A stretch of 64,000 nucleotides of DNA from Euryarchaeota archaeon UBA62. Its GTDB lineage: Archaea > Thermoplasmatota > Poseidoniia > Poseidoniales > Thalassarchaeaceae. Position numbers and translations under genes: made by a program. The notes under the pieces were generated by a model. It was not told where the DNA came from, made no database searches, and saw only the letters and a program-made list of their open reading frames with translations. The stretch lies in contig DAPJ01000005.1 in NCBI GenBank assembly GCA_002502095.1, positions 15,763-79,762 on the forward strand. The letters are read 5' to 3'. Below, one piece after another: positions 2,311 to 64,000 of the stretch (its first letter is position 1; every line of letters begins with the position of its first letter).

Positions 2311-5300
2311 GTGGCTATGGCCCGCAGAGATAGATTGAGCTCGACTATTCTAGTAATGTTGATGCTAACCAGCGTTTTCATCGCACTAGTAGGCCCCGCG
2401 TCCCCGGTAGCAGCCTCAAATGAGACCACTTCCGGAACAATCACTGGAACCGAGTACTGGCAAGGAAATCACGTTCTTACAGGTGACGTAGTAATCTCAT
2501 CCGGTGCTAAATTGGTCATCCAGCCCAGTACCAATGTGATTTTTCCCAATGGTACCCATCTGGATGCCAGGGGCAGCCTGTGCATAGGTGTGTCTTCTTG
2601 TGGGGCCAGCGGAAACGCAAATTCTGCTCAGAAAATCACATTTAGCTGGGAGGAGCCTGAGAATTCCAGTGCTCAAGGAGAATGTAATGGGATTTCCCAG
2701 GGACAATTCGAAATTACGATTACCGATCCTTCTTGCTATGAAGGACTCATTATCAGAGACTCAATTGACCTGTCACAATCTGGAATTAGACACACTACCA
2801 TTGATGGCGCATGGGGAATTCCACACTTTGTTGATAACCAAAACGGATTCAAATATGCCGCTCTAGTCCTGGATGGGGCCAGTCCTACACTGACGGAAAT
2901 GGAGTTTATCGATATCAACTCCAGTAGCGTACTAACCACGGGACTCGCTCAACCCGAGTTCATCGGAGGGCAGTATACCGTAGGTAATGATGATGAGAGT
3001 GGAGTGGACGGTCCCGCAGTCCAGATCTACAGCTCTGGAACTCCTATCACTCCACTAATCATGTCTTCTCCAGATCTGATTGGTTCTGATAATGGATGTG
3101 GGAACAATGCAGGTGGTAAGCCAACAGTCTGGGTTGAAGACGCGTTCATAGAGATCGATGATGCAGAAATCGGAGTTGGGGATTATGGAATTTCACTGAG
3201 GTATTCTTCTGGTTCAGTCACTAACTCAGAGATTTCCGTCAACTGTAACGGAATTGATATTTACAGCTTGAAGAGCGTGGGACAGATTGACTACTACAAT
3301 ACAATTACAGGAAACGAGATTGTTACGAATGATAGAACCCCAATCACTGTGTACGGGGGGGCTCATGCTTTTATCAGAGATAACGATCTATCAGGAGCTG
3401 GAAGTGGAAGTGGTATTGCAGTCTTCTCCAGCTATGCTGAGATAACAAACAATGACATCGGCCCAATCGGTGGGTGGAACGGACTTTGGATGTACGGATC
3501 TTTTGATGTAATTGCCGAAAATAACACAATCTTCGATACTAACAGGGAGGCCATTATCGCTGGAGAGTACGGGAGTAACGCTCCCGCCCCTAGCGCGTCT
3601 AGGGCATTCCTCGCAAACAACACCATTTCATCCTCAGGCCAAGGAGACTGCTCTAGTAGCCTCCATTTCAACGGGCAGTTCACCTGCCCTGCTGTGATGG
3701 CATACAGATCTGGACTGACCATGTATGATAACGAGATTAACTCTGGAGGGGAGTCCGATGGAATCAGGTCTATTGGAGCGTTACTTGACATCAGGAGGAA
3801 TACATGGAACGCCGCGGGCTCAGGAGCTGTAATCAAACACTATGATTCAGGATATGCAGGAGACCAGCAATACGGATCGCTAGCTTTCTTCTCTGAGAAT
3901 ACTTGGAACGGCGTGGGTACTACCTACAATATCACGAAGAGCTCAGTAACCGTACAATCCGAATCCATTCCCAGTCCACCCACAGGACAGTTTCCAGTGA
4001 TTCTCTCGTGGCCAGATCAGGAGGCATGGCCAGCCAACGGTTTCCAGAATGGAATCATACCCACAGACGTTCAAGAGTGCTCTAACTGTGATAATCTCAC
4101 TCCTAGAAATTTCCCACTAGCGCTCTCCATGGATAATAACTCCACAGTGATGACATTTGCCGGTCTGGCTAATCTAGATAGGTCGTCCATCTCAATCCAG
4201 ACTCAACCGACCCCCTATGCAGTACAGGTCAGAAGAGCCGAGTTGGTCAAGTTCCAAGCTCTGGTCAACGGAGAGAGGGTACCGGGTGCCAGCATCCTCA
4301 TCGAAGACGCTCTCGGAAACGATATGTATGATATTGATACCCTTTCCGATGGATATACCCCATGGTTTGCCCTCCCTTCAGATTTTCATCTGGACTTCAG
4401 AGGACTGGGAGGGGGCGATAACCCCGATGGATTCGCAGATGACGAATTCGAGGACTCCTGCTCAGATGGAATAGACAACGATGGGGACCTCCTAATGGAC
4501 GCGGACGATACTGATTGTGACTACACTGCGGGTACTAGAGAGCTCTCCCTATACCGATTCACCGCCTATAAGTTCGGATACGGTCTGGATAGCGGACAAT
4601 TCACATTAGATGATTCTTCATATCAAGGAACTGCGAACCTGCTAAATTTAGCTCCCTCTGTATCCATCACACAAGACCAAGGCCACTCTTTCAGAAAGAT
4701 AGTGAATATCACTGGCAACGCCCACGATGGTATTCTAGCCTCATTCTACCCGAGTGATGAAATGGCACAGTGGGATCAGAAAGGATTCGTCCATTCAATA
4801 GAAGTTAGAGACCCATTCACAAGTGATTGGTCAGATGCACAACTGGCCACCGACTCCTCTGGCTCCCAATATGGGGAAGTAACTAGTACTAACCATCCTT
4901 TCAAAGAATGGTACTATGAATTGGATATGTCTCAAATGGCTGAAGGAGACTATGTTTTCCAGTTCCGAGCATTCGACGGAATCGACTACAGCCCGATATC
5001 CACCATCTCTATCAAGCTCAATTCTCAGGCCCCTACAGTTTCAGTAAGCTCTCCAAGTCCATTCTCTACTCACTCTGACGACACTGTTACATTCGAGGGT
5101 GCTGCCTATGATTACTATGGATGTCCTTCACAGTGTGGCAAGGATATTTCTGAGATTTATTTCCAAATCGAGGGTCCTAATTTCCAAGTTGTTACTCCTG
5201 TCTCTGGAGGCACATCCTGGTCATGGACTTGGGACTTCAGCGGTCAGCCCAGAGTTGTGGCGGACTATACTTTCAAGATATGGGCCGCTGACTCGGACTT

Positions 5301-44989: not shown

Positions 44990-45269
44990 CCGTGCTACTG
45001 AGAGATGTTTTAGCCAGCTAATGAAAGCTAACTATCCCGGTTACTTCATATACCGAATGTAGGTCGCCGAGATGCTTTGTGTGCTCCTTGGTACAGTCGT
45101 GTATCAGGGTAAGAAGGTTGAGACCGCTTCGCCCTGCGGGGAGACGTAGTGGTCAGAGAAACCTGAATTGATATGCCTGGAATACCAGAGGAATCGCCTC
45201 TTCACTTGTGGAGGGGCGATTAAAACTCACACAGGTGGGTATGTGGAATCACAATGATGCTACAACCCG

Positions 45270-48138
<2,869 letters not shown>

Positions 48139-48218
48139 ATCAAGAATTCACATATTAAGCCCTGTGTGGGCCTCTGTTCAATCAAGCATATCAATTCACA
48201 CATTCGAAAGAAAGTTGT

Positions 48219-48334
48219 GCACGGCCACAGCGGAGGGGTAATACCCGGTCCCATATCGAACCCGGAAGTCAAGACCTCCTGCGTCGATTCCTGTACTGTG
48301 GTGCGAGAGCCCACGGGAACGATCGTCGCTGTGC
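48219..48334 (+). rRNA. rrf: 5S ribosomal RNA
   Basis: GCACGGCCACAGCGGAGGGGTAATACCCGGTCCCATATCGAACCCGGAAGTCAAGACCTCCTGCG...GTGCGAGAGCCCACGGGAAC...GCTGTGC. The terminal helix 5' gcacggc pairs with 3' gctgtgc. About 80 nt downstream of the 23S gene and followed by a T-rich tract. Confidence 0.85.
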
Positions 48335-48335
48335 C

Positions 48336-48352
48336 TTCTTTCTTTCTCATAA
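48336..48352 (+). terminator. T-rich tract (cttctttctttctcat) downstream of 5S, a likely archaeal oligo-T terminator
   Basis: Pyrimidine/T-rich run immediately after the 5S 3' end. Confidence 0.4.
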
Positions 48353-48427: not shown

Positions 48428-49096
48428 TTGGGAATTTCCACTGGCGATATTCTGGGTCACAGCCAAGTTGGCGTTTACTTATCTGTAATCGGTGATGTAT
48501 TATTCGTTCCAAGATCCCTTGGCGCAGAGGCCGTAGAGGAAATCGGAAGTGCTTTCGGTATCGAAACATATCCGTTCATGGTAGGAGGGTCCTCTTTGAT
48601 TGGGAGTCTTTTGAAGGGAAATAGCAAGGGTATCGCTGTAGCTGATATTGCCACAGAAGAAGACCTTGATGAGCTAACAAGCTTTGGTGACGTTGTAGTA
48701 ATGCAGAGCGGTGTAAATGCCGCAGGAAACCTAGTCGAATGCAATGAAATAGGTGCGATTGTAAGTCCAGTGGTCCCTCCAGGGAAAGACGGCGTTGAAA
48801 TGATAGGAGAAGTATTGGGTGTGAATGCAATAAGAAGTAAAGTTGCAGGACATGATACAGTAGGCAGTATGCTAGTAGCGAATTCTAACGGAGCTTTGGC
48901 TCATCCAGATATTACAACAGATGAGGCAAAGCTCATCGAGAATACCTTAGGCGTTCCAGTTATGGTGGGGACAGTCAGTTTCGGATCTCCCTTTATTGGT
49001 GCGGGTTGTGCCGCCAGCGATACCCATGCAATGGTAGGTACAGGTTCAACCGGTCCTGAGATGAATAGGATAGAAGACGCTCTGGGACTAATTTGA
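48428..49096 (+). CDS. eif6: Translation initiation factor 6 (aIF6/eIF6)
   Basis: Five-fold pseudo-repeat with GVYLSVIGD..., GNSKGIAVAD..., SGVNAAGNLV..., NSNGALAHPD..., VGTGSTGPEMNRIEDALGL. The frame opens only after the stop at 48404-48406, and the first start is TTG at 48428. Confidence 0.85.
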   Translation: MGISTGDILGHSQVGVYLSVIGDVLFVPRSLGAEAVEEIGSAFGIETYPFMVGGSSLIGSLLKGNSKGIAVADIATEEDLDELTSFGDVVVMQSGVNAAGNLVECNEIGAIVSPVVPPGKDGVEMIGEVLGVNAIRSKVAGHDTVGSMLVANSNGALAHPDITTDEAKLIENTLGVPVMVGTVSFGSPFIGAGCAASDTHAMVGTGSTGPEMNRIEDALGLI

Positions 49097-49362: not shown

Positions 49363-49830
49363 CTATTTAGAATCGTCAATAGCGGGTTCAATTACCATTA
49401 GAGGAGAATTTGCTTCGATGCTATCTCCTGGTTCACAATTCAACTCAGTAATTTTCCCAGAAATAGGGGCCTGAATTTCATTCTGCATCTTCATGGCTTC
49501 TAATATCATTATGACGTCCCCTTCGGAGACAAGCTCATCCTGTCTCACTGAGATGGAGATAATTTTTCCTGGGATTGATGACGACACTACTCCTGATCTC
49601 TTAGCCTTTCGAGCTCCCTTCTTTTTCCTGGGAGAGGGTGACCCGCGTTTACTGCCATCTACTTTGATAGAGAATACTCTACCTTCTACTTCGACCTTCC
49701 AAAAATCTCCTTCTTTCTCCATAGAGACTTCAAAATCTTCTCCATCGACATTTACTTTTCTTTTGTCGTTCATTAGATCACCTGGAAGAACTCCTCTTCG
49801 ATTTAGCTCTGAACAGATTCCTTCTGCCAA
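49363..49830 (-). CDS. Biotin carboxyl carrier protein (biotinyl domain subunit of acyl-CoA carboxylase / methylmalonyl-CoA decarboxylase)
   Basis: Biotinyl-lysine motif ILEAMKMQNEI inside a lipoyl/biotinyl-type hammerhead (GDVIMILEAMKM...GKITEL). The start may be the internal Met near 49773. Confidence 0.8.
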   Translation of the reverse strand: MAEGICSELNRRGVLPGDLMNDKRKVNVDGEDFEVSMEKEGDFWKVEVEGRVFSIKVDGSKRGSPSPRKKKGARKAKRSGVVSSSIPGKIISISVRQDELVSEGDVIMILEAMKMQNEIQAPISGKITELNCEPGDSIEANSPLMVIEPAIDDSK

Positions 49831-49981
49831 TAATTACTCTTCGATGGTCTCTAGCCCACTCCTTTCCCCTGTTTCTCTGTGAAGAGGGTTGGATAAAATC
49901 TCCTCCCTCCTCTTCTAGAATAACAGCAACCATCGCTACTACTTTTAATTTAAGCAATCTACTATCGTCCAAAAAAACACC

Positions 49982-51535
49982 TCAAAGCGGAATATTACCA
50001 TGTTTTCTAGCTGGCCTAACCTCTTCCTTTTCAAGCAGCGCACCGAGTGCTTTGACCATGACGATCCTCGTCTCACTTGGTTGAATTACATCATCAAGAT
50101 ATCCAAGAGAGGCAGCACGATATGGGTTTGCAAAAGTATCTTCATAGTCATCTACTAGTCTCTCCCTCTCCTGTTCAGGGTTTCCAGAAGAGGCGATCCT
50201 CCTTCTATGAATAATTTGTACCGCTCCCTCTGCTCCCATAACTGCCAGCTGTGCAGAGGGCCACGCAACGTTGTAATCTCCCCTGATGTGTTTGGACGAC
50301 ATTACATCGTAAGCGCCCCCATATGCCTTCCTGGTAATCACAGTCAATTTAGGGACCGTCGCTTCGGCATATGCATAAAGTAACTTAGCGCCATGTCTGA
50401 TTATCCCTCCCCACTCTTGGCTAGCACCTGGAAGAAAACCAGGAACATCTACAAAGGTTAGAAGAGGAATATTGAATGAATCACAAAATCTTACGAATCT
50501 AGCCGCCTTAATGGATGCATCAATATCCAAGCACCCGGCAAGAAAATTAGGCTGATTAGCAACCACTCCAATAGTATGTCCTCCTAGTCTGGCAAATCCG
50601 ACTACTATATTCATTGCATATTCTGACTGAACCTCTAAGAATGCCCCATCATCTACTGTTTCTTCTATTGCCACAATGATATCATACGGCTCTTTGGGGT
50701 TATCTGGAACTAAACTTTGCAACCTGTCACAGGCCCTATCTATCGGATCCATAGTAGGTAAAACGGGAGCTTTCTGTAGATTATTCGATGGCAACATACT
50801 AATGAGCTCCCTTGTCAACTCTAAGGCCTCTTCATCGTCATCTGCAGTAAAGTGAGTCACACCAGACTTTCTAGCATGAGTCGAAGCCCCTCCCAAGTCC
50901 TCAAAGGAAACCTCTTCGTTAGTTACTGTCTTGATTACTTCCGGTCCGGTGATGAACATATGGGAGGTCCCATCCACCATAATTACAAAATCAGTAATCG
51001 CTGGAGAGTAGACTGCTCCTCCTGCACAGGGTCCCATGATGACTGAAATTTGTGGTATGACTCCACTTGCTCTGACGTTCCTGAAGAATATTTCCGCATA
51101 AGAACCAAGACTAGCTACGCCCTCCTGTATCCTTGCACCCCCGCTGTCATTTAGTCCAATGACAGGAGATCCAGTTTTGAGGGCCATGTCAAGAATCTTG
51201 CAAATCTTCAGGCCATGCATCTCCCCGAGGGAGCCACCGTATACTGTGAAATCCTGAGCAAAGCAGTACACTGTCTTCCCTCCTATGGTGCCATGCCCAC
51301 ACACCACACCGTCCCCAGGGATTACATTCCTATCCATATCAAAGTCTCTGCATCTATGCTCTACCAACGGATCCACCTCCATGAAAGATCCATCATCTAA
51401 GAGTAGATCTAACCGCTCTCGTGCCGTTAATTTTCCCTTGGAGTGCTGTGCTGATACTCTCGCCTGACCGCCTCCTGCTATGGCTTGTGCCTTACGCCTC
51501 CGAAGCTCTTCAACGCGTACGTCATCTGCACTCAT
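49982..51535 (-). CDS. pccB: Acyl-CoA carboxylase carboxyltransferase subunit (propionyl-CoA carboxylase beta / methylmalonyl-CoA decarboxylase alpha family)
   Basis: [22 protein letters not shown]-terminus. [16 protein letters not shown] motif. 517 aa. Confidence 0.85.
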
Positions 51536-51638
51536 GTACCTCCATATGTTGGGACGTCAATATGTCTTACTAATGAAAACGTGAAAATATGGCCTGCGGT
51601 TGCTTCAAGGAGGGTCACCGGTTCGCCTATTCGATACT

Positions 51639-52076
51639 ATGAAGATAGTAATGGCCAAACCGGGCCTTGACGGCCATGATCGAGGTGCAAAAGTAATAGC
51701 CAGATCACTTAGAGATGGAGGTCATGAAGTCGTGTATACTGGCCTTAGGAGGACTCCTGAGGAGATTTCAAGAATTGTAATGGATGAAGACGCAAATGCT
51801 CTTGGACTCTCTACATTATCAGGAGCTCATGACGTTTTAGTGCCACGAATTTGTGAACTTCTCAGGGAGACAGGAATGGGCAATGTAATGGTTTTCCTGG
51901 GAGGGATAATACCCGATAGAGATCATGAAAGTATGTTCTCCAGTGGCGTGAGGGCAATATTTGGACCGGGATCAAGAACAGATGAAATCCTATCTTTCTT
52001 AGATGAGGCTAATTCAAGAGTGGAGTCAGGTGCCCCCATTGGAGTCGGTGATGAAGATGGGTGGCGTTGGAATTGA
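51639..52076 (+). CDS. Methylmalonyl-CoA mutase small subunit, the B12-binding domain
   Basis: MKIVMAKPGLDGHDRGAKVIARSLRDGGHEVVY contains the DxHxxG cobalamin-binding motif. About 145 aa. The track ORF starts at 51600; the internal Met is preferred. Confidence 0.85.
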   Translation: MKIVMAKPGLDGHDRGAKVIARSLRDGGHEVVYTGLRRTPEEISRIVMDEDANALGLSTLSGAHDVLVPRICELLRETGMGNVMVFLGGIIPDRDHESMFSSGVRAIFGPGSRTDEILSFLDEANSRVESGAPIGVGDEDGWRWN

Positions 52077-52948
52077 TTGATCAAGACTCCCTCCTAAAAT
52101 CAGCAGCCGATGGTAACAGGAGGGACTTGTCAAGATTGCTAACTTACCTAGAAAAGGGTATAAAGCTCAATTTTCCTGAAAATACCCCTCCAAGGAAATC
52201 ATCGGTTATGGGAATAACCGGTCCTCCAGGAGTCGGAAAATCATCTCTAATAGGGAGAATAATCAGTTATTGGAATTCTAGAAATCAGAACGTAGCTGTT
52301 CTGGCTATTGACCCCTCGTCTCCAAGGTCAGGTGGGGCACTGTTGGGGGATCGAGTAAGGATGGACTCAGCTGACTCAGGAGAGTTGGTTTACGTGAGAT
52401 CTCTTTCTACTGGGGGCCAGCCAGGTGGAATGTCATCATCGTTGATTTCAATGATTGAATTACTGTCCTACTGTGGATGGGAAAATATTGTGATAGAAAC
52501 CGTTGGATCGGGCCAGTCGGAAATTAAAATAGTTGCATTCGCAGATAAAATAATTTTAGTTGATGGCCCAGATAGAGGCGACATAATTCAAGCCGAGAAA
52601 GCAGGCATTATCGAGTTAGCAGATATTATTGTGATTAACAAATCAGACCTTCCGGGGGCTATCAAAGCTGCCGAATCAATACGTTCTTCTCTCTCATTTG
52701 CCGACGGAAAGAAATCCCCGGATGTTGTCCTCGTCTCTGCACAGATGAACGAGGGAATAGATGAAATGATGGAGTTAGTGCAAAACTGTGATTCTCCGGA
52801 TTGGAGAGAGAAGATAAAAATACAAGAAAGATTGATCTCACTGTGGGATTCTCGTCTACTATCGTCTCCCAATTTGAATCGGGTCATAAACGAATTACAA
52901 ACCGGAAGTATTTCACTTGATGATGCTCTGGACGATTTAGCTAGGTGA
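52061..52948 (+). CDS. meaB: MeaB/ArgK-type GTPase (methylmalonyl-CoA mutase-associated G-protein chaperone)
   Basis: P-loop GITGPPGVGKSSLIGRI. NKSD (NKxD) motif in VINKSDL. Overlaps the preceding B12-domain gene by 16 nt. Confidence 0.85.
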   Translation: MALELIDQDSLLKSAADGNRRDLSRLLTYLEKGIKLNFPENTPPRKSSVMGITGPPGVGKSSLIGRIISYWNSRNQNVAVLAIDPSSPRSGGALLGDRVRMDSADSGELVYVRSLSTGGQPGGMSSSLISMIELLSYCGWENIVIETVGSGQSEIKIVAFADKIILVDGPDRGDIIQAEKAGIIELADIIVINKSDLPGAIKAAESIRSSLSFADGKKSPDVVLVSAQMNEGIDEMMELVQNCDSPDWREKIKIQERLISLWDSRLLSSPNLNRVINELQTGSISLDDALDDLAR

Positions 52949-54988: not shown

Positions 54989-57772
54989 TCACTGACTCTT
55001 CCCTGCCTCAACCTGCCTGGCTAGGAAGCTAACGACATCCAATATTTCGAAGTCATGTCTTGGGTCCCCTTCGAACTTTAGGCACTCGAAATGGGAGACA
55101 CACTTTGGACAGGATGTCAGCATGATGTCAGCCCCAGTTGCGTTTACCTCTTCGAATCTCTGGACTCTCAAAGCTCTACTATTCTCATTACAGCTCATCA
55201 TACTGGAAACACCACAGCAAAGTGCATCTTCGCCATGATGCTCCATCTCTACTAGGTTAACTCCTTCTACGTTGGATATGAGGTCCCTTGGCTGGTCATA
55301 GATATTCATCTGCCTCCCTAGTCTGCATGGGTCATGGAAAGTGACCGTAACATCGTCATCCGATTGTAGATTCATGTCAAAACCATTCTCTACCAGGAAT
55401 TCAGTGGTATGCATCACCTTCATGTCCTCCAACTCATAGTCCAGGGCGAATGTTCTGAAGCACTCGGCGCAAGATGTCACTAGGGTGTCAATCCCACTCT
55501 CTCCTAGTTTCTTCTGATTGTACGCCTTGAGCTTCTCAAAGACTTCTGTCATTCCTTGCCATTTCTGATCATGGCCACAGCACTTCAAGAAATCCCTACC
55601 AAGGTAAGTGACATCTTCACCCATCTCTTCGAATAGCGTGAATGCGGAAGTTGTAGCATCTCCTAGATTCATGGAACCTTCGTTGACGTGACTGAAAATC
55701 ATTTCTTGATCCAGGTAGTCGACACATCCTGGGTAGTATCCGATGTTCGAATCAATTGGATACTCATCAATCGACATGAAGTATCCGTCAGCATCCTCCT
55801 CTGCTTCAGCAGCTAGGACCGCCTGTAATACAGTATGAGGAATTTCAGTAGCAGGAGGGCCGCCGACTATCATATTCCTCCTGATGTCAACATATGAATC
55901 ATAATCCACTAGTTGGGGACAGGCATTGGTACAAGCAGAGCACGTCAGACATGAATACAAAGGAACCCCGTCGTCCTCATTGTTCCAAGTATTGTAGATG
56001 ATGTTCAGCTTATCTCCAGAGTTGAATAGCCTCACTGGACAAGCGTCATCACAAAGATCGCAGCCGTAGCACTTGTTCATCTCGTATTCGTATCCTCTCG
56101 CCATGCTCCTCATGAGCATGAATACCAAAGCACCGACTCCCAGACAAGGTATGAATAACGAATATATCAATTTCGCATCAAGACTCTTCGGATTCTTGTG
56201 ATACGTTGGATTCTTCAAGTACATTGCCGACATGGTCTCTAGATCCAGAGTCGACTCTGACCTGACTAGTGAAGTGCCATCATCATTCAACAGTAGGGGC
56301 TGGTATGCTACCACAGACAAGCTCGTGATTACCTCTACAGACTCGTTGATTCCTTGCGATGTGGTCATGTAAGAAACACTGTAAGTATTCCCCGCATCTA
56401 GGTATATGGTTTCCGAAACACACCCTTCCGTACTCCAAATTTCATCTCCTGACGAGTCACTTAGAACCAAACTCTGAGAATGGACACCTGCTCCTCTGAC
56501 TGTAGTCCTGAATAGACATCCAATATCCGCTGGAACTTCGGAAACTCCCAGGTCTTCTACTTCGAATGTCATACTTACTTCGTATGTAATCTCAGATCCA
56601 TCTGCAGTCCCGGGGAAAGATGTTTCATCCTCGGCCGAATTTCTACCTGTGGCACTGTCGGCATGTCCATTATCACCTGCAAAGTCAATTATCTTGAATT
56701 TCGTAGGTTGGAAAATACCCCAATTAGACCAATGCGTCGCGGCAATGACACACCAATCAGAGGGATCTTCTTCTGATGACAATCCATTCCATGCAGCCAG
56801 TGTTGAGCTTTCCTCATAAGGTATGCATTCGTCTTCCCAGTCAGCCCAAACATTCCCTTCCTCTACGTGTACAAGGGTGTCAGAAGGCTGTGCCCTGAGG
56901 GAATCCAAGTCTTCGACATCGTCCATGGCACCGAGCCCACCATAGTCCCAGAAACCATTCTCATACACAGGCCATGTGACAACAGATATGAGTACAGCGG
57001 CAATTAGAGATCCTACAGCAACCTGACGACCAATCCTTGGGGTAACTCTGGAACCTACTGAGCTAAGCAGGAATTTCCTGGTAGGGAAATATATGACTGC
57101 GAATAAGAAAATTCCAGTAAGTATCCACGGAACCGCATTGAAAACCTCAGCAGTCCAGGGGGCTTGTCTTCCACACATTAGTTCAGAATGAGAACCAGTA
57201 AAGCAATAGTCACTACGATCTTTGGCATACAAGTCTAGGAATATATTGATCGAGAAAACCGATATGAACCAGACATGGGCTAAATAAACAGCTCCCGCAG
57301 TTGCAAACCATGGATCTTCAACCCCTCTCTTTTCTCTACCGGGTAGGAAGGGGGGAAGTGCGAGAATACCAACAGGAAGTCCTGTAATTGCGGCTCCCCA
57401 CCAAGCAGCGTTCCAATCGATAACAGGAGTTCCGAAGAACTCTCCGATAGGGCCTGCTGGAATCACAAATTGAGGAAGATACTCGCCCCATCTTAGGTAT
57501 CCGTATGAAAACAGAACGTACCAATCGGGGAATACGAAACCAGCTTGCGCGAATGGATCAGCCGCACTATGCAGTGGGGGAGGTATCAGCCAAGAGTAGA
57601 ATGCTATGGTCATGACAATCGAGGCAAAAATTATCGTATCTCGAAGTACTTCAGTAGGCCAGAAAGGATGTCCAGTAAACGTCCTCCTCCTCTCGGTATC
57701 AGCTTCCAAAAGCTTGTTTCTCTCGCTGATGTATGTATCAGCAATTCTACCAAATCTATCCATCATCCCCAT
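54989..57772 (-). CDS. Fusion protein: cytochrome b6f subunit IV (PetD)-like quinol-site domain, large acidic ectodomain, one TM, and a cytoplasmic HdrD/GlpC-like module (2x[4Fe-4S] plus 2 CCG domains)
   Basis: N-terminus YGEPAWP-like HPFWPTEVLRDTIIFASIVMTIAFYSWLIPPPLHSAADPFAQAGFVFPDWYVLF has the PEWY-equivalent PDWY. C-terminal CYGCDLCDDACP and CLTCSACTNACP ferredoxin motifs. Two CCG motifs LKCCGHDQ...DPCRLG and ALCCGVSS. Confidence 0.8.
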   Translation of the reverse strand: MGMMDRFGRIADTYISERNKLLEADTERRRTFTGHPFWPTEVLRDTIIFASIVMTIAFYSWLIPPPLHSAADPFAQAGFVFPDWYVLFSYGYLRWGEYLPQFVIPAGPIGEFFGTPVIDWNAAWWGAAITGLPVGILALPPFLPGREKRGVEDPWFATAGAVYLAHVWFISVFSINIFLDLYAKDRSDYCFTGSHSELMCGRQAPWTAEVFNAVPWILTGIFLFAVIYFPTRKFLLSSVGSRVTPRIGRQVAVGSLIAAVLISVVTWPVYENGFWDYGGLGAMDDVEDLDSLRAQPSDTLVHVEEGNVWADWEDECIPYEESSTLAAWNGLSSEEDPSDWCVIAATHWSNWGIFQPTKFKIIDFAGDNGHADSATGRNSAEDETSFPGTADGSEITYEVSMTFEVEDLGVSEVPADIGCLFRTTVRGAGVHSQSLVLSDSSGDEIWSTEGCVSETIYLDAGNTYSVSYMTTSQGINESVEVITSLSVVAYQPLLLNDDGTSLVRSESTLDLETMSAMYLKNPTYHKNPKSLDAKLIYSLFIPCLGVGALVFMLMRSMARGYEYEMNKCYGCDLCDDACPVRLFNSGDKLNIIYNTWNNEDDGVPLYSCLTCSACTNACPQLVDYDSYVDIRRNMIVGGPPATEIPHTVLQAVLAAEAEEDADGYFMSIDEYPIDSNIGYYPGCVDYLDQEMIFSHVNEGSMNLGDATTSAFTLFEEMGEDVTYLGRDFLKCCGHDQKWQGMTEVFEKLKAYNQKKLGESGIDTLVTSCAECFRTFALDYELEDMKVMHTTEFLVENGFDMNLQSDDDVTVTFHDPCRLGRQMNIYDQPRDLISNVEGVNLVEMEHHGEDALCCGVSSMMSCNENSRALRVQRFEEVNATGADIMLTSCPKCVSHFECLKFEGDPRHDFEILDVVSFLARQVEAGKSQ

Positions 57773-57782
57773 TTATCACACC

Positions 57783-58649
57783 TCAATGTGGCTCCGCTAT
57801 ACCTTGTGCCCAAACAATGAACAAATGTGCAAGAATGAGCGAAGTAACTACTACTGGAAGTATGAAGACATGAAGGAAGTACATTCTGGTAACCGTCTGT
57901 CCTGAGATTGTAGTACCGGCGAACATAGCGGTTGCAACCCAACCTCCAATCAGAGGGGTACTATTTGCCATGTTGATTCCAATAGTTGCAGCACCGAATG
58001 CTAGGCTATCCCATGGGAGGAGGTATCCTGAATAGCCAAAGAAAATTGTGAAGAACATCAGTGCGACTCCAATCAACCAGTTTAATTCCCTAGGATTCCT
58101 GTAAGCACCGGTGAAGTAGACCCTACACATGTGCAGGAATACAGCAGCGACCATGAAGTGCGTAGTCCAGTGATGTATGGATCTGATGATGTATCCGAAA
58201 GGAAGTTGTGTCATTATGAATTCCATGCTACTATACGCAGGAGTTGGATCTCCCTCTCCACCCGGTACGTAGTATAGTCCTAGAACAGTACCTGTCAGAA
58301 CTAGGATTACGAATGCCAAGAAGGAAATCCCACCTAGGCAGTATAGGGGATACCAATACCAAATTATTCTGAGCTTGTATTTCTCAGCATGAGTCATGGG
58401 CATTTGCCTGTGCATGCCGTAGTACGCATCCCTGCTCATCCCCCAGTAGTCCTGAATTCTGAATCTTGTATCTAGCCACGAGAATGCCCACAGGAATGAC
58501 TTTTCTGCTAGACCCATGCTACTAGCACTAGTCTCGACCGCTCGCAGTATTTCTTTCCTCGGCATCTCCTCTCTTTCTTTCCTCAGTGTTAGAGCTACTA
58601 TTACTACAACTAAGGTTATGAAGACCCATAGAAACCAGAATTGAATCAT
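57783..58649 (-). CDS. petB: Cytochrome b6-type cytochrome b (N-terminal 4-helix haem domain)
   Basis: SIHHWTTHFMVAAVFLHMCRVYFTGAYR...PRELNWLIGV...GYLLPWD. Haem His pairs spaced 14 (helix B) and 15 (helix D) as in b6. Confidence 0.85.
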   Translation of the reverse strand: MIQFWFLWVFITLVVVIVALTLRKEREEMPRKEILRAVETSASSMGLAEKSFLWAFSWLDTRFRIQDYWGMSRDAYYGMHRQMPMTHAEKYKLRIIWYWYPLYCLGGISFLAFVILVLTGTVLGLYYVPGGEGDPTPAYSSMEFIMTQLPFGYIIRSIHHWTTHFMVAAVFLHMCRVYFTGAYRNPRELNWLIGVALMFFTIFFGYSGYLLPWDSLAFGAATIGINMANSTPLIGGWVATAMFAGTTISGQTVTRMYFLHVFILPVVVTSLILAHLFIVWAQGIAEPH

Positions 58650-60872: not shown

Positions 60873-61223
60873 ATGCCGTCACACCAAACTAATATGCCAA
60901 GTCTAAGAGGAAGTGATATGTCAGGGCCCGTTTGGAGGAATGTGTACAGTCTTAACGAGGATCAAATATCGAAACTTGACGAGGCCGAGGACCATATGGA
61001 GATGATGAGAATCGGTCCCGCTGAAAAAATACTCATCGAACTTCTCGAGCAAGAACCAGAGTGCGTTCCGGTCCTGAACGTCATGGCACACCTCCAGGGA
61101 AGGTATTTATCAGACTTCGAGAAAGCTGTAGAATTCTATGATAAGGTACTTGCTATAGAACCAGATAATGCATGGGCAAGAGATGAGAGAAGACGTTACA
61201 CAAGATATTCCAGTTATGATTGA
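60873..61223 (+). CDS. Small TPR-like protein (hypothetical)
   Basis: 116-aa ORF. ...YLSDFEKAVEFYDKVLAIEPDNAWA is TPR-like. Overlaps the start of the following ftsZ-like gene by 8 nt. Confidence 0.4.
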   Translation: MPSHQTNMPSLRGSDMSGPVWRNVYSLNEDQISKLDEAEDHMEMMRIGPAEKILIELLEQEPECVPVLNVMAHLQGRYLSDFEKAVEFYDKVLAIEPDNAWARDERRRYTRYSSYD

Positions 61224-62163
61224 GCAATTCTATACGCCTACCCCATACTCGAGGTTCGTGAACGACGGAGAGGTCCTAATAGCCGGAGTCGGAGGCTTGG
61301 GTTGTATATGGGCTATTGAGGCTCATTCAAGATGCTCAGAATTATCCGAGTTACTGTTAATCGATGCCGATGAAAGCTCCTTCGAAGGAGCTAACGAGGC
61401 TAATTGCTTGTATCTCGATGCAGGAGGGGAGGGCAGAGGCGCAGCAGCTCTTCCTTCAATGGCAACACACAGGCTGAGAAATGGTATTGACTCAATTTCT
61501 TCTCTACTTGAAGGGGCCGAGGTGCTCATCCTATTGACTGGTTTGGGGGGAGGAATGGGATCTGGTGCTTCGGGGGAACTGGCAAGGATAGCAAATCAAC
61601 ACGGTTGCATGGTTCTTTCTATCGCGGGCCTTCCCTTTGCAGAACAGCCACTAAGGTGTTCGATTGCAGAGGCAGCAATCCCTTCATTAGAAGTAAATTC
61701 CAGCGTGTGTATCAGAGTCAGTATGGAGAGATTAGCTTGGCAGTCTAGGAGCAGGAAGACGAATTGGATGACAGGTTCAGGTTGGATAGCGGAACTCGTT
61801 GAAGGACTTGTTACGACCCTAGCTAGTGTGGGAAGAATAAATCTAGATTTAATGGATATGAGAGCAATAATAAACAAAGAAGGAAATGCTACTTTGATAG
61901 TTGGAACGGGTGTATCTGAGAATCCTAAATCAGTAGTTGAGATGGCTAGAAACTCACCTCTAAATGACATTCCAGTAGAAGGCGCCAAGGGTTGTATGAT
62001 TCAGGTCGAAGGAGGCCCAGATATGACTCTAGCACACCTGACAGAATTAACAGACTCATTCGTATCATCCATGGACCCAGACTGCCAGGTCATCATGGGA
62101 GCCAGAGTTAGTGATGAGATGGTCGGTAAGCTCAGGCTCGTCGCAGTAGTTAGTGGGATTTAG
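61216..62163 (+). CDS. Divergent FtsZ/tubulin-superfamily GTPase (short, about 315 aa)
   Basis: T1-like LIAGVGGLGCIWAI. T3-like DAGGEGRGAAALP. T4 signature altered to GLGGGMGSGASG (canonical GGGTGSG). T7-like GRINLDLMDMRAI. C-terminal domain pattern ...GNATLIVGTGVSE...ARNSPL...GAKGCMIQVEGGPDMTL...LRLVAVVSGI parallels the FtsZ C-domain. Confidence 0.7.
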   Translation: MIEQFYTPTPYSRFVNDGEVLIAGVGGLGCIWAIEAHSRCSELSELLLIDADESSFEGANEANCLYLDAGGEGRGAAALPSMATHRLRNGIDSISSLLEGAEVLILLTGLGGGMGSGASGELARIANQHGCMVLSIAGLPFAEQPLRCSIAEAAIPSLEVNSSVCIRVSMERLAWQSRSRKTNWMTGSGWIAELVEGLVTTLASVGRINLDLMDMRAIINKEGNATLIVGTGVSENPKSVVEMARNSPLNDIPVEGAKGCMIQVEGGPDMTLAHLTELTDSFVSSMDPDCQVIMGARVSDEMVGKLRLVAVVSGI

Positions 62164-62198: not shown

Positions 62199-62495
62199 AT
62201 GGCTAAGGTCAGTAAGGCCAGAAGGGGTAAAAATAGATGGATAGGCCTGCACATCTATCAGAAACCAATTACTAGGACATTATTAGAGGATAATTTAGGA
62301 AAGATAATGGGCGATATCGACTGGAAATTATTTGATTTGTTCGACGACGAAATTCATACTCTAGCAATTCTGAGGACATCACTTGAAGATAGCTTGGAAG
62401 CAAAGAAAAAAATTAATTCTATTGACGGTATGGCGACTCTAACCACATCAGGTAAGATTAGGCTCGTAAGGCAGAGATTGGGCATCCATAAATAG
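62199..62495 (+). CDS. rnp2: RNase P protein component 2 (Pop5-like)
   Basis: KARRGKNRWIGLHIY (cf. Pop5 RRRKRWIAVRV). Internal ILRTSLE (cf. LRCSHK). C-terminal TSGKIRLV (cf. VSGTIKKL). 98 aa. Confidence 0.5.
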   Translation: MAKVSKARRGKNRWIGLHIYQKPITRTLLEDNLGKIMGDIDWKLFDLFDDEIHTLAILRTSLEDSLEAKKKINSIDGMATLTTSGKIRLVRQRLGIHK

Positions 62496-62499
62496 CTAA

Positions 62500-63858
62500 T
62501 TAGGGATAATTCCATTCCATCTTTTGAGCATCCGAAACCAAGACTTCACTGCCATCGACTTCTATGCACAAGAATCCATCATTGTCTAGTCCAATAATCC
62601 TGACCCTTTCATTCTCAATCTCAGCTACTACGCCTCTAGAAAGACTGGATGACAATGCCTTCCAGCTAGAAATTTCCAGCGACCTTTGATCAAGATCTGG
62701 TACCATTTCGAGTCTTTCAAGAATTCCAGAGACCCCACTGTCCACCATACTGAACACTTCTTCTAGGGAAACGTCGCCAATGGTATCGCTCCACCCAAGG
62801 CAAGGAATTCCATTAACCACCCTTGGTGATGAATTAATTCCAATCCCTATCCTAAAGCCAGGATTAGAACTATTCGCTTCAATCATTATCCCCCCTATTT
62901 TCTCCCCACGGATGGAGATCAGGTCATTGGGCCACTTCAGTTCACAACTTAGTGACTTCGAAACCGCGGCGCCAATCCCTATCTGTAGCATTCCAGGGGT
63001 GGAAATCTCGGTTGGCTCTCTGTTGATTTTCCACGATGCCAGTAAATCTCCAGGAATAGACTCCCATTTTGATCCTCTTCTCCCTCTGCCAGAAAGCTGG
63101 TCTCCTACAATCAGTCTCTGCCACCCCTCGTCCGGCAAATGAATCACTCCATCCATTGCAGAATCACATATTTCCTCTCTCTTTTCCTTTGACCCTGAAC
63201 CAGTCCTCCACATAGCAAAGACCTCCAATCTCTCATCGCCAATCCTCTTCATTTCCAATGATCTGCAAGACCACCCAGACATTAACCAGACAGAAGGGCT
63301 ACTGGGACTAATTGGGTCCGTTCTAAATAGAAGAACGACCGTCAAATCATCATTGTTCCTAACTTTCAGACTTTTCAATAACTCTTCTGACCAGCCACCA
63401 TCTCCCAAATCAGTCAGTGACGCCTCCTCGATAGGCTCCAATACCGGCCCATTAGGGTCTGGGGGATTGAGATATGGTAGATTCCATACAATCAACTTAG
63501 TTCCATCTGGTATGCCCCATCCATCCTCGCCAACCCCACCTTCTCTAACTATTACATTTCTCTCAAATCCATTTCTTTCTATGTTAGCTCTAGAACAGGC
63601 TACAGCATATGGATTGACATCATATGATAAAACACTCCAGCCGAGAGCAGAAAGTGCCATGGAGACCACGCCCGTGCCACATCCTATCTCTATTGCATTC
63701 GATGCATTCCCCTCCAGTCTTGAAATCGCCCTGCAGAGCAATTCAGTGTCCTCACGAGGAGGATAAACTGTCGGAGCCACATCAATTTCCCAAGGGCCGA
63801 AGTTTTCCATTTCAAATATCATCCTCTTCATATAAATCATCACCCGCTCAGTTCTCAA
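62500..63858 (-). CDS. Fusion protein: Mtq2/HemK-like class-I SAM methyltransferase (N-terminal) plus biotin-[acyl-CoA-carboxylase] ligase BirA catalytic and C-terminal domains
   Basis: N-terminus VYPPREDTELL...IEIGCGTGVVSMALSALG...YDVNPYAV...IVWNLPYLNPP (SAM motif I plus NPPY-like motif). C-terminus QLSGRGRRGSKWESIPGDLLASW (BirA GRGRRGR-W-SP-G-L signature) plus an SH3-like tail. Confidence 0.75.
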   Translation of the reverse strand: MRTERVMIYMKRMIFEMENFGPWEIDVAPTVYPPREDTELLCRAISRLEGNASNAIEIGCGTGVVSMALSALGWSVLSYDVNPYAVACSRANIERNGFERNVIVREGGVGEDGWGIPDGTKLIVWNLPYLNPPDPNGPVLEPIEEASLTDLGDGGWSEELLKSLKVRNNDDLTVVLLFRTDPISPSSPSVWLMSGWSCRSLEMKRIGDERLEVFAMWRTGSGSKEKREEICDSAMDGVIHLPDEGWQRLIVGDQLSGRGRRGSKWESIPGDLLASWKINREPTEISTPGMLQIGIGAAVSKSLSCELKWPNDLISIRGEKIGGIMIEANSSNPGFRIGIGINSSPRVVNGIPCLGWSDTIGDVSLEEVFSMVDSGVSGILERLEMVPDLDQRSLEISSWKALSSSLSRGVVAEIENERVRIIGLDNDGFLCIEVDGSEVLVSDAQKMEWNYP

Positions 63859-64000
63859 AACATCGATTTTTCATCAGTAAACCTTATTTGTTGGCCTCAT
63901 AAATTAATCTTGCTTCCGTCCATACGGGAGGGGACCCGGCCACCGCTAGCCTTGCTCTTGCCGGTAGGTTCAAAAATACCCCCTCGGTCCGAGGATAGCC

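Follow-up and report, generated by a model that had tools for sequence, protein, structure and literature searches.

A predicted Mtq2-type methyltransferase joined to a biotin protein ligase in one gene conserved across the Poseidoniales (Marine Group II archaea)

A 64,000-nucleotide stretch of contig DAPJ01000005.1 from Euryarchaeota archaeon UBA62 (Poseidoniales, Thalassarchaeaceae), referred to below as the window, carries near its end a single uninterrupted open reading frame (ORF) at positions 62500..63858 of the minus strand, which amounts to 452 amino acids (aa) when counted from a TTG codon. A first-pass annotation, made from the letters alone, had read this ORF as a methyltransferase of the Mtq2/HemK type fused to a biotin protein ligase (BPL) and had ventured that methylation and biotinylation could be coupled in it. 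The locus thus raises the question of whether such a protein is real and, if it is, whether its halves act together or apart. The reading favoured here, at a probability of roughly 0.6, is that two housekeeping enzymes of protein modification were fused in this lineage and would act independently on different substrates.

Both domains have been recovered in the one ORF by Pfam, NCBIfam, profile-profile and fold searches, in agreement with the proposed fusion. The lengths, put earlier at about 190 and 260 aa, are corrected to about 213 aa for the methyltransferase and about 230 aa for the BPL. The true start of the gene is probably the ATG at 63840 or at 63831 rather than the TTG at 63858, because the homologues are 443-445 aa long and have an N-terminus equivalent to MKR...FEMENFGPW. 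Residues of domains and motifs are numbered from position 63837, and conservation refers to an alignment of 84 family sequences with identities down to 41%. The features recognised in the gene are as follows.

62500..63840, minus strand: coding sequence of the whole fusion, through its stop codon; the start could also be TTG 63858 or ATG 63831 (the 443-aa form of the homologues)
63199..63801, minus strand: predicted complete HemK2/Mtq2-type class-I N-methyltransferase domain, dependent on S-adenosylmethionine (SAM), residues ~13-213, from hhalign and Foldseek
63745..63771, minus strand: TVYPPREDT, N-terminal HemK/Mtq2 signature (VYxPxEDT in Mtq2), with V24, Y25, P26, P27 and D30 invariant in the 84 sequences
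63670..63690, minus strand: motif I EIGCGTG, SAM-binding glycine loop, with E50, G52, G54 and G56 invariant
63610..63624, minus strand: YDVNP, with the acidic residue ending strand 2 (the ribose contact of class-I methyltransferases); D73, N75 and P76 invariant
63469..63486, minus strand: WNLPYL, a variant of the catalytic NPPY, with N119, P121 and Y122 invariant
63133..63255, minus strand: domain junction, residues 195-235, 41 residues long in 84 of 84 homologues, with W210 and S226 invariant
62698..63189, minus strand: BPL catalytic domain, residues ~217-380, from PF03099, TIGR00121, PDB profile and Foldseek
63073..63090, minus strand: GRGRRG biotin-binding loop, residues 250-255, with G250, G252, R253 and the downstream W258 invariant
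62923..62937, minus strand: KWPND with the catalytic lysine K301, residues 301-305; K301, W302, P303 and D305 invariant
62878-62895, minus strand: GGIMIE, after KWPND; GG...E invariant or nearly so
62833-62847, minus strand: GIGIN, after KWPND; GxGxN invariant or nearly so
62503..62688, minus strand: putative small C-terminal beta-barrel (SH3-like BPL_C), residues ~384-445, five strands in the AlphaFold2 (AF2) model

A search of 5.8 billion proteins has revealed 443 matches, and the two-domain ORF recurs in more than 440 clusters at 90% identity. Among the best 120 of the 443 matches, full-length two-domain proteins of 441-515 aa with identities down to 41% make up nearly all, two being shorter fragments, and the relatives of the fusion come from NCBI, JGI, ENA, Logan and Tara. 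When each GTDB species was represented by one genome, 356 loci that encode a relative were identified; the recurrence of the two-domain ORF in 356 species representatives is far beyond chance and answers the earlier suggestion to look for the same fusion in other genomes.

Integrity and synteny have been counted in the best 80 of these 356 loci. Their labels read Poseidoniales, Thalassarchaeaceae, Thalassarchaeum or Marine Group II, or else are generic Euryarchaeota, Methanobacteriota or Thermoplasmatota names of metagenome-assembled genomes (MAGs). Both halves lie in one uninterrupted frame in all 80, and the frameshift artefact that the first-pass annotation had named as a refutation is not seen in any of them. 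The gene order is kept in 70-80 of the 80 and comprises an Rpb5/RpoH-like gene, a tRNA, the fusion, a convergent gene of 98 aa, an FtsZ-like gene, a TPR gene and then membrane or unknown genes; this conserved neighbourhood gives no hint of function in the 80 loci. Judged from these genomes, the fusion is a genuine gene, predicted to be bifunctional, that is conserved across the Poseidoniales (Marine Group II).

Variation in the family was noted in P0176 (670 aa), P0178 (560 aa) and P0191 (528 aa) and in P0312/P0235 (442/430 aa): some members are extended by 60-90 residues at the N-terminus or are longer in their C-terminal part, and a very divergent lineage (33% identity, with a NAPY or NTPY motif) has the fusion as well. 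The extended members and this lineage make the fusion family broader and faster-evolving than its syntenic neighbours.

The N-terminal half is, as far as profiles and models can tell, a complete Mtq2-type enzyme. Comparison of the N-domain family with 29 standalone HemK2/MTQ2 proteins by hhalign gives a probability of 99.95% and an E-value of 6.7e-38 over 189 columns, and the alignment spans columns 13-209 against template positions 7-195 of 206, from the VYPPxEDT lid through the last hairpin. A structure model of the N-domain alone (predicted local distance difference test, pLDDT, 90.8) has as its three best fold matches in Foldseek 6h1d, 6ped and 6kmr, all of human HEMK2/N6AMT1-TRMT112, with E-values of 1e-8 to 4e-8 and template modelling (TM) scores of 0.63-0.67 over ~200 columns; E. 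coli PrmC-RF1 comes next. N6AMT1 is also the best methyltransferase match in the PDB profile search. The PRK14968/MTQ2, PrmC (TIGR03534) and birA_ligase models are each matched by 84 of 84 family members. The full-length MTQ2 alignment, the HEMK2 top fold and the family models found throughout uphold the Mtq2/HemK-type identity assigned at first pass.

In Pfam, the N-domain matches MTS with 31.2 bits (cut-off 23) at residues 38-128 and, within the same region, the PrmA core with 35.7 bits (cut-off 22). Residues 14-136 match the archaeal PRK14968 'putative methyltransferase', PrmC and HemK2/MTQ2 models of NCBIfam significantly yet below their cut-offs. When residues 1-205 were compared by HMMER with 1.84 billion representatives, dozens of fusion-length clusters came first, followed by standalone proteins of ~200 aa at E-values of 1e-13 to 1e-8. 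The nearest standalone relatives exceed the TIGR00537 cut-off, with 112-219 bits, and the ten nearest that are named belong to Diapherotrites, Methanobacteriales (Methanosphaera), Thermoprotei and Asgard archaea.

Other identities have been considered for the N-domain and rejected. The PrmA family of Pfam (PF06325) covers only profile positions 148-215 of 296, which form the SAM-binding core, the N-terminal L11-binding domain is not covered, and TIGR00406 scores 33.5 against 183. Matches to the GenN-type aminoglycoside N-methyltransferase and to CbiT are likewise limited to the SAM-binding core, whereas MTQ2 is matched over its full length and HEMK2 is the top fold.

Like the Mtq2/HemK2/N6AMT1 enzymes (human 6H1D, Haloferax volcanii HVO_2744), which are single-domain class-I methyltransferases of ~200 residues, the N-domain has the VYxPxEDT lid, GxGxG, N-x-P-Y and the C-terminal hairpin. 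It differs from them in being fused to a BPL, in having NLPY or NIPY for NPPY, in an extra N-terminal beta-hairpin (residues 4-20 of the model), in a divergent stretch after NxPY (LEPIEEAS..GGWS) and in its score below the TIGR00537 cut-off. With bacterial PrmC/HemK, the GGQ methyltransferase of release factors RF1 and RF2 (2B3T, 1NV8), it shares the catalytic core and motifs, and its PRxETE-like lid and the 'EP..A' segment past the catalytic motif are PrmC-like. PrmC has an N-terminal helical RF-binding domain, which is absent from the N-domain, and its substrates RF1 and RF2 are absent from archaea.

The motifs on which the first reading had leaned have all been located (EIGCGTG at 63690-63670, WNLPYL at 63486-63469 and GRGRRG at 63090-63073), and so has KWPND at 62937-62923. 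W118-N-x-P-Y-L, VYPP..D, ExGxGxG and DxNP are invariant among the 84 sequences, and so are the SAM-binding residues, the loss of which had been named as a second possible refutation. A motif scan shows Leu at position 120 in 73 of 78 loci and Ile in the other 5. The ratio of nonsynonymous to synonymous substitution rates (dN/dS), taken from unsaturated pairs, is 0.12-0.18 in the methyltransferase half against 0.10-0.22 in the ligase half, and the mean column conservation is 0.62 in the methyltransferase, 0.58 in the ligase catalytic domain and 0.47 in the tail. On these substitution patterns both halves are under purifying selection. The invariant motifs, the low dN/dS and a conservation above that of the ligase argue for a methyltransferase that is catalytically active and is not a fossil or a spacer.

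The ligase half is, on its profile scores, a divergent member of the birA_ligase family, since TIGR00121 matches residues 251-436 with 69.6 bits, below the equivalog cut-off of 83.1; the same model is matched by 84 of 84 homologues at an E-value of at most 1e-5. BPL_LplA_LipB (PF03099) is found at residues 250-342 with 38.5 bits against a cut-off of 21, and BPL_C (PF02237) weakly at residues 410-437 with 15.5 against 21. The Pfam scan that had been proposed as a check is thus positive above the gathering score for MTS and BPL_LplA_LipB and falls short of it for BPL_C. The PDB profile matches of this half include 2eay, 1wnl and 1bia; class-I BPLs of Aquifex, Pyrococcus and Methanocaldococcus are among them, along with BirA. 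The fold matches of the full-length model are 1wnl, 4xtw and 3efs, in which whole class-I BPLs are aligned with target TM scores of 0.72-0.77.

No helix-turn-helix (HTH) family is present among the Pfam matches of the protein, and the alignments to BirA models begin only at about profile position 108. As there is no DNA-binding domain, the ligase is, by sequence and model, a class-I-type BPL core and not a BirA repressor. The earlier label of BirA holds for the biotin protein ligase and is overstated as a name, the N-terminus being a methyltransferase and not an HTH repressor domain. The class-I BPLs of Pyrococcus horikoshii (PH0147, 1WNL; 2EJF with its biotin carboxyl carrier protein) and Aquifex aeolicus (2EAY, 3EFS) consist, as is modelled here, of a catalytic domain and a small C-terminal beta-barrel; GRGRxG, the KWPND lysine, GxGxN and the absence of a DNA-binding domain are common to them and residues ~217-445. 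They start at the catalytic domain, whereas here a methyltransferase of 213 residues and an ordered junction come first.

The junction is modelled by AF2 as an ordered strand-helix-strand with pLDDT above 90, and the full-length model has a pLDDT of 91 and a predicted TM score (pTM) of 0.90. No indels or length variation are found at the junction in the 84 aligned homologues, and the tryptophans W184, W189, W210 and W239 of the interface region are invariant. The fixed length, the order and the invariant tryptophans suggest, in alignment and model alike, a rigid and co-evolved body.

The favoured reading builds on the domain identity and completeness, the motif conservation, the purifying selection, the phyletic spread and the synteny described above. 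By analogy with known BPLs, the ligase half would convert biotin to biotinyl-5'-AMP and would place the biotin on the lysine of EAMKM in the carrier subunit of a propionyl/acyl-CoA carboxylase. Two genes of such a system are encoded in the window.

49363..49830, minus strand: biotin carboxyl carrier protein (BCCP), probable BPL substrate, 155 aa, biotinyl domain with E-value 1e-15
49982..51535, minus strand: carboxyltransferase subunit (PccB-like) of a biotin-dependent acyl-CoA carboxylase, E-value 2e-200

EAMKMQ of the BCCP is encoded at 49500-49483, where 49491-49489 is the codon of the biotinyl-Lys, and the start of the protein is probably an internal ATG, such as that at 49773. The biotinyl domain and the carboxyltransferase match confirm the first-pass placing of both genes (49363-51535) about 13 kb from the fusion; this distance does not amount to linkage with the fusion gene. 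The carboxyltransferase gene adjoins, in divergent orientation, those of a methylmalonyl-CoA mutase B12 subunit (51600-52076) and MeaB (52061-52948), and the four are, on their sequence matches, a propionyl/methylmalonyl-CoA cluster. No biotin carboxylase subunit is found beside the BCCP and carboxyltransferase genes (49363-52948).

The methyltransferase half would use SAM to N-methylate an amide or amine of a protein, in all probability the GGQ glutamine of archaeal release factor 1 (aRF1), so that the fusion would be the carrier of the Mtq2 function of the lineage; the short ordered junction of constant length would join the domains as one rigid body. This substrate is proposed because Mtq2 orthologues have been reported in all archaea and the enzyme of H. 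volcanii methylates the GGQ of aRF1 (PMC6144793), and because no separate Poseidoniales Mtq2 has been seen. None is present among the nearest standalone relatives of the N-domain, of which few entries are named and which do not represent a whole-genome scan. No Poseidoniales or Tara entry occurs among the best 120 of 2147 matches to a Thermoplasmatota Mtq2 profile, few of them named, or among the best 120 matches to the closest standalone protein; Tara is a frequent source of members of the fusion family. The reading predicts that both halves are catalytically active, that aRF1 is methylated, that the two activities are independent and that the fusion is the sole Mtq2 of these genomes.

Other Thermoplasmatota possess standalone Mtq2 proteins of 188-215 aa. 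The fusion apparently originated in the Poseidoniales stem or close to it, because these relatives hold Mtq2 as a standalone protein, not beside a BPL in the two cases examined.

Several observations weigh against the reading of two independent housekeeping enzymes. The MTQ2 model TIGR00537 scores 48 against a cut-off of 87 bits in the N-domain, PRK14968.1-3 (NF011529) 67 against 162 and PrmC 51 against 199, and single-sequence hidden Markov model (HMM) alignments of the domain end at the NxPY motif. On these grounds the N-domain must be called divergent; it lies below every curated release-factor methyltransferase cut-off and may act on another substrate. Leu or Ile takes the place of the first proline of NPPY throughout the fusion family. 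NTPY and NAPY are present in standalone archaeal proteins above the MTQ2 cut-off, so the position is probably tolerant. The rigid and strongly conserved junction somewhat exceeds the needs of an accidental fusion of unrelated enzymes. A separate canonical Mtq2 could perhaps exist in the Poseidoniales, the negatives coming from the best 120 matches with few of them named. An origin by the joining of adjacent genes was also considered and gained no support, as the standalone Mtq2 genes of a Methanomassiliicoccales genome and of a Thermoplasmatota MAG have no BPL neighbour.

The divergence of the N-domain from canonical MTQ2, with scores below all curated cut-offs and an altered NxPY, would also suit a neofunctionalised Mtq2 paralogue that methylates the BCCP, the carboxylase or the BPL and whose tethering couples methylation with biotinylation. 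A junction that is rigid, fixed in length and highly conserved, in a model with a pTM of 0.90, points to a co-evolved two-domain unit of this kind, and a Gln stands two residues past the biotinyl-Lys of the BCCP (EAMKMQ). The TIGR03533 matches of standalone relatives accord with substrates other than release factors, and HemK-family enzymes do have such substrates, as exemplified by PrmB, which acts on ribosomal protein L3. We know, however, of no precedent for methylation of a BCCP near its biotinyl-Lys, and AMKMQ occurs also in carboxylases of organisms that lack the methyltransferase-BPL fusion. The fusion gene is unlinked to the carboxylase genes, 13 kb off, and has RpoH, a tRNA and the FtsZ-like gene as its conserved neighbours; and if the Poseidoniales have no separate Mtq2, none having been seen, the aRF1 function would need to lie in the fusion. 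Coupling or retargeting is on this balance unlikely. We hold it more improbable still that the methyltransferase fold serves the ligase as a SAM-sensing switch or as a module for dimerisation or substrate recognition, or that it is a partner for which the BPL body replaces Trm112 as stabiliser. Other BPL classes do have non-catalytic N-terminal domains that modulate the ligase, such as the HTH of E. coli BirA, a BirA/CoaX fusion model exists in NCBIfam, and the interface region is conserved, with its four invariant tryptophans. Archaeal and eukaryotic Mtq2 is moreover usually dependent on Trm112 for solubility (PMC6144793). An N-x-P-Y motif, a VYPP..D lid and a SAM pocket that are invariant at ~41% identity, with a dN/dS no higher than that of the ligase, would nevertheless be unexpected of a purely structural domain. 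The variant in which Trm112 is replaced is compatible with the favoured reading and is not opposed to it.

Taken jointly, replacement of Trm112 by the BPL, methylation of the carboxylase system and control of the ligase by SAM make a doubtful prospect. A low probability is likewise given to the fusion being a functional unit, in which the BPL body or the N-terminal hairpin replaces Trm112, or the methyltransferase targets the BCCP or the carboxylase, or subjects the ligase to gating by SAM. A BioC-like malonyl-acyl carrier protein O-methyltransferase fused to the ligase would have a thematic link to biotin and could draw on weak generic matches to Methyltransf_11, 12 and 25. It is made very improbable by the amino-methyltransferase motif N-x-P-Y, the HemK-type VYPPxEDT lid, the full-length MTQ2 alignment and the HEMK2/PrmC nearest folds, and no BioC model is among the reported NCBIfam matches. 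An assembly or frameshift artefact joining two adjacent genes has the a priori rarity of the architecture in its favour and nothing else, and is scarcely credible beside single-frame ORFs in 80 of 80 independently assembled genomes and in over 440 clusters and a junction free of indels. Two standalone relatives of the N-domain, P0183 and P0236, were considered as split genes and discarded as contig-end fragments, one being a partial record and the other a contig fragment of 694 nt, whose cluster includes a full fusion of 442 aa.

The genes around the fusion deserve a brief description. The 98-aa ORF at 62199-62495 (plus strand) converges on the fusion gene, the stop codons lying 5 nt apart; it has no Pfam match even at an E-value of 0.5 and is present in 80 of 80 Poseidoniales loci with 32-86% identity. 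Its shape may be likened to that of a small RNase P/Pop5-like protein. A divergent protein of the FtsZ/tubulin family, with FtsZ_C and a weak Tubulin GTPase match, is encoded at 61168-62163 (plus strand). The mechanically called FtsZ-like ORF shares 56 nt with the end of the gene for a small TPR protein at 60873-61223 (plus strand), and both are syntenic with the fusion throughout the order. In locus L005, which is 88% identical, the region upstream of the fusion gene (3106-3819 of the L005 stretch) holds a tRNA (3746-3819, minus strand) and a protein that has an Rpb5/RpoH C-terminal domain and an unusual N-terminal extension of ~100 aa. The end of the window (63940-64000) falls about where the upstream tRNA of L005 would lie.

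Elsewhere in the window, an archaeal 23S rRNA (45250-48147, plus strand) and a 5S rRNA (48217-48337, plus strand) have been identified, with an eIF-6 gene (48428-49096, plus strand) right after the 5S; the two rRNAs mark the stretch as archaeal. No 16S rRNA is found within the 64-kb window, so the rRNA genes appear to be unlinked. A protein of 927 aa in the region 54989-58649 (minus strand) has two CCG cysteine-rich domains and 4Fe-4S dicluster domains and is encoded directly downstream of a cytochrome b gene (57783-58649); the two look like a respiratory module.

Fusions of a BPL core with a domain of second function are known and provide a precedent for N- and C-terminal fusions. E. coli BirA joins the BPL to an HTH repressor that regulates biotin genes, the Bordetella-type BirA/CoaX (NF009862) to a type III pantothenate kinase, and eukaryotic holocarboxylase synthetase has a long N-terminal extension ahead of the BPL core; in none of the three is the partner a methyltransferase. 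In the PycA-BirA fusion of Methanocella the BPL is joined to its own substrate enzyme (PMC11237513). Unlike all of these, the partner of the BPL described here belongs to a family of translation-factor modification enzymes. From the side of the methyltransferase, the bifunctional PrmC/TrmB (NF002421, PRK01544), which is found among the matches of the standalone relatives, also combines a HemK-family methyltransferase with an unrelated enzyme. It is bacterial, and as its partner is a tRNA methyltransferase both of its halves are related to translation.

Full-text searches on the architecture have found no description of a methyltransferase-BPL protein, and a search on Poseidoniales and biotin returned viral auxiliary genes only. 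In an archaeal fusion survey (PMC11237513), PycA-BirA is the sole BPL fusion mentioned, and its supplements, as far as accessible, contain no birA or K03524. The current names in the family vary between 'hypothetical protein', 'methyltransferase' and 'biotin ligase'. An automatic name from JGI already reflects both halves, 'biotin-(acetyl-CoA carboxylase) ligase/methylase of polypeptide subunit release factors'. The fusion is a genuine architecture that defines its lineage; it is uncharacterised, but its parts are two well-understood enzymes.

The archaea of Marine Group II, which rank among the most abundant in the plankton, have not been cultured, and knowledge of their proteins is nearly all derived from sequence. 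Strictly conserved throughout the order, a fusion that ties the only recognisable biotin ligase to a methyltransferase of the translation-factor type is a clean oddity in such organisms, and with it the BPL architectures gain an N-terminal appendage of a fourth kind. The fusion also provides a natural experiment on the question of whether enzymes of the Mtq2 type can function with no free Trm112 at their side. It would be a curiosity of genome streamlining if its two activities proved independent. If they were coupled, a new link between methylation and biotin-dependent carboxylation would be established, and gating by SAM or methylation of the carboxylase would tie one-carbon status to biotinylation. 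Replacement of Trm112, if true, would show a new way in which this methyltransferase family can meet its dependence on that partner. Should the fusion prove to be a functional unit, it would represent a new class of BPL with an enzymatic N-terminal domain, found in an archaeal group that is among the most abundant in the surface ocean.

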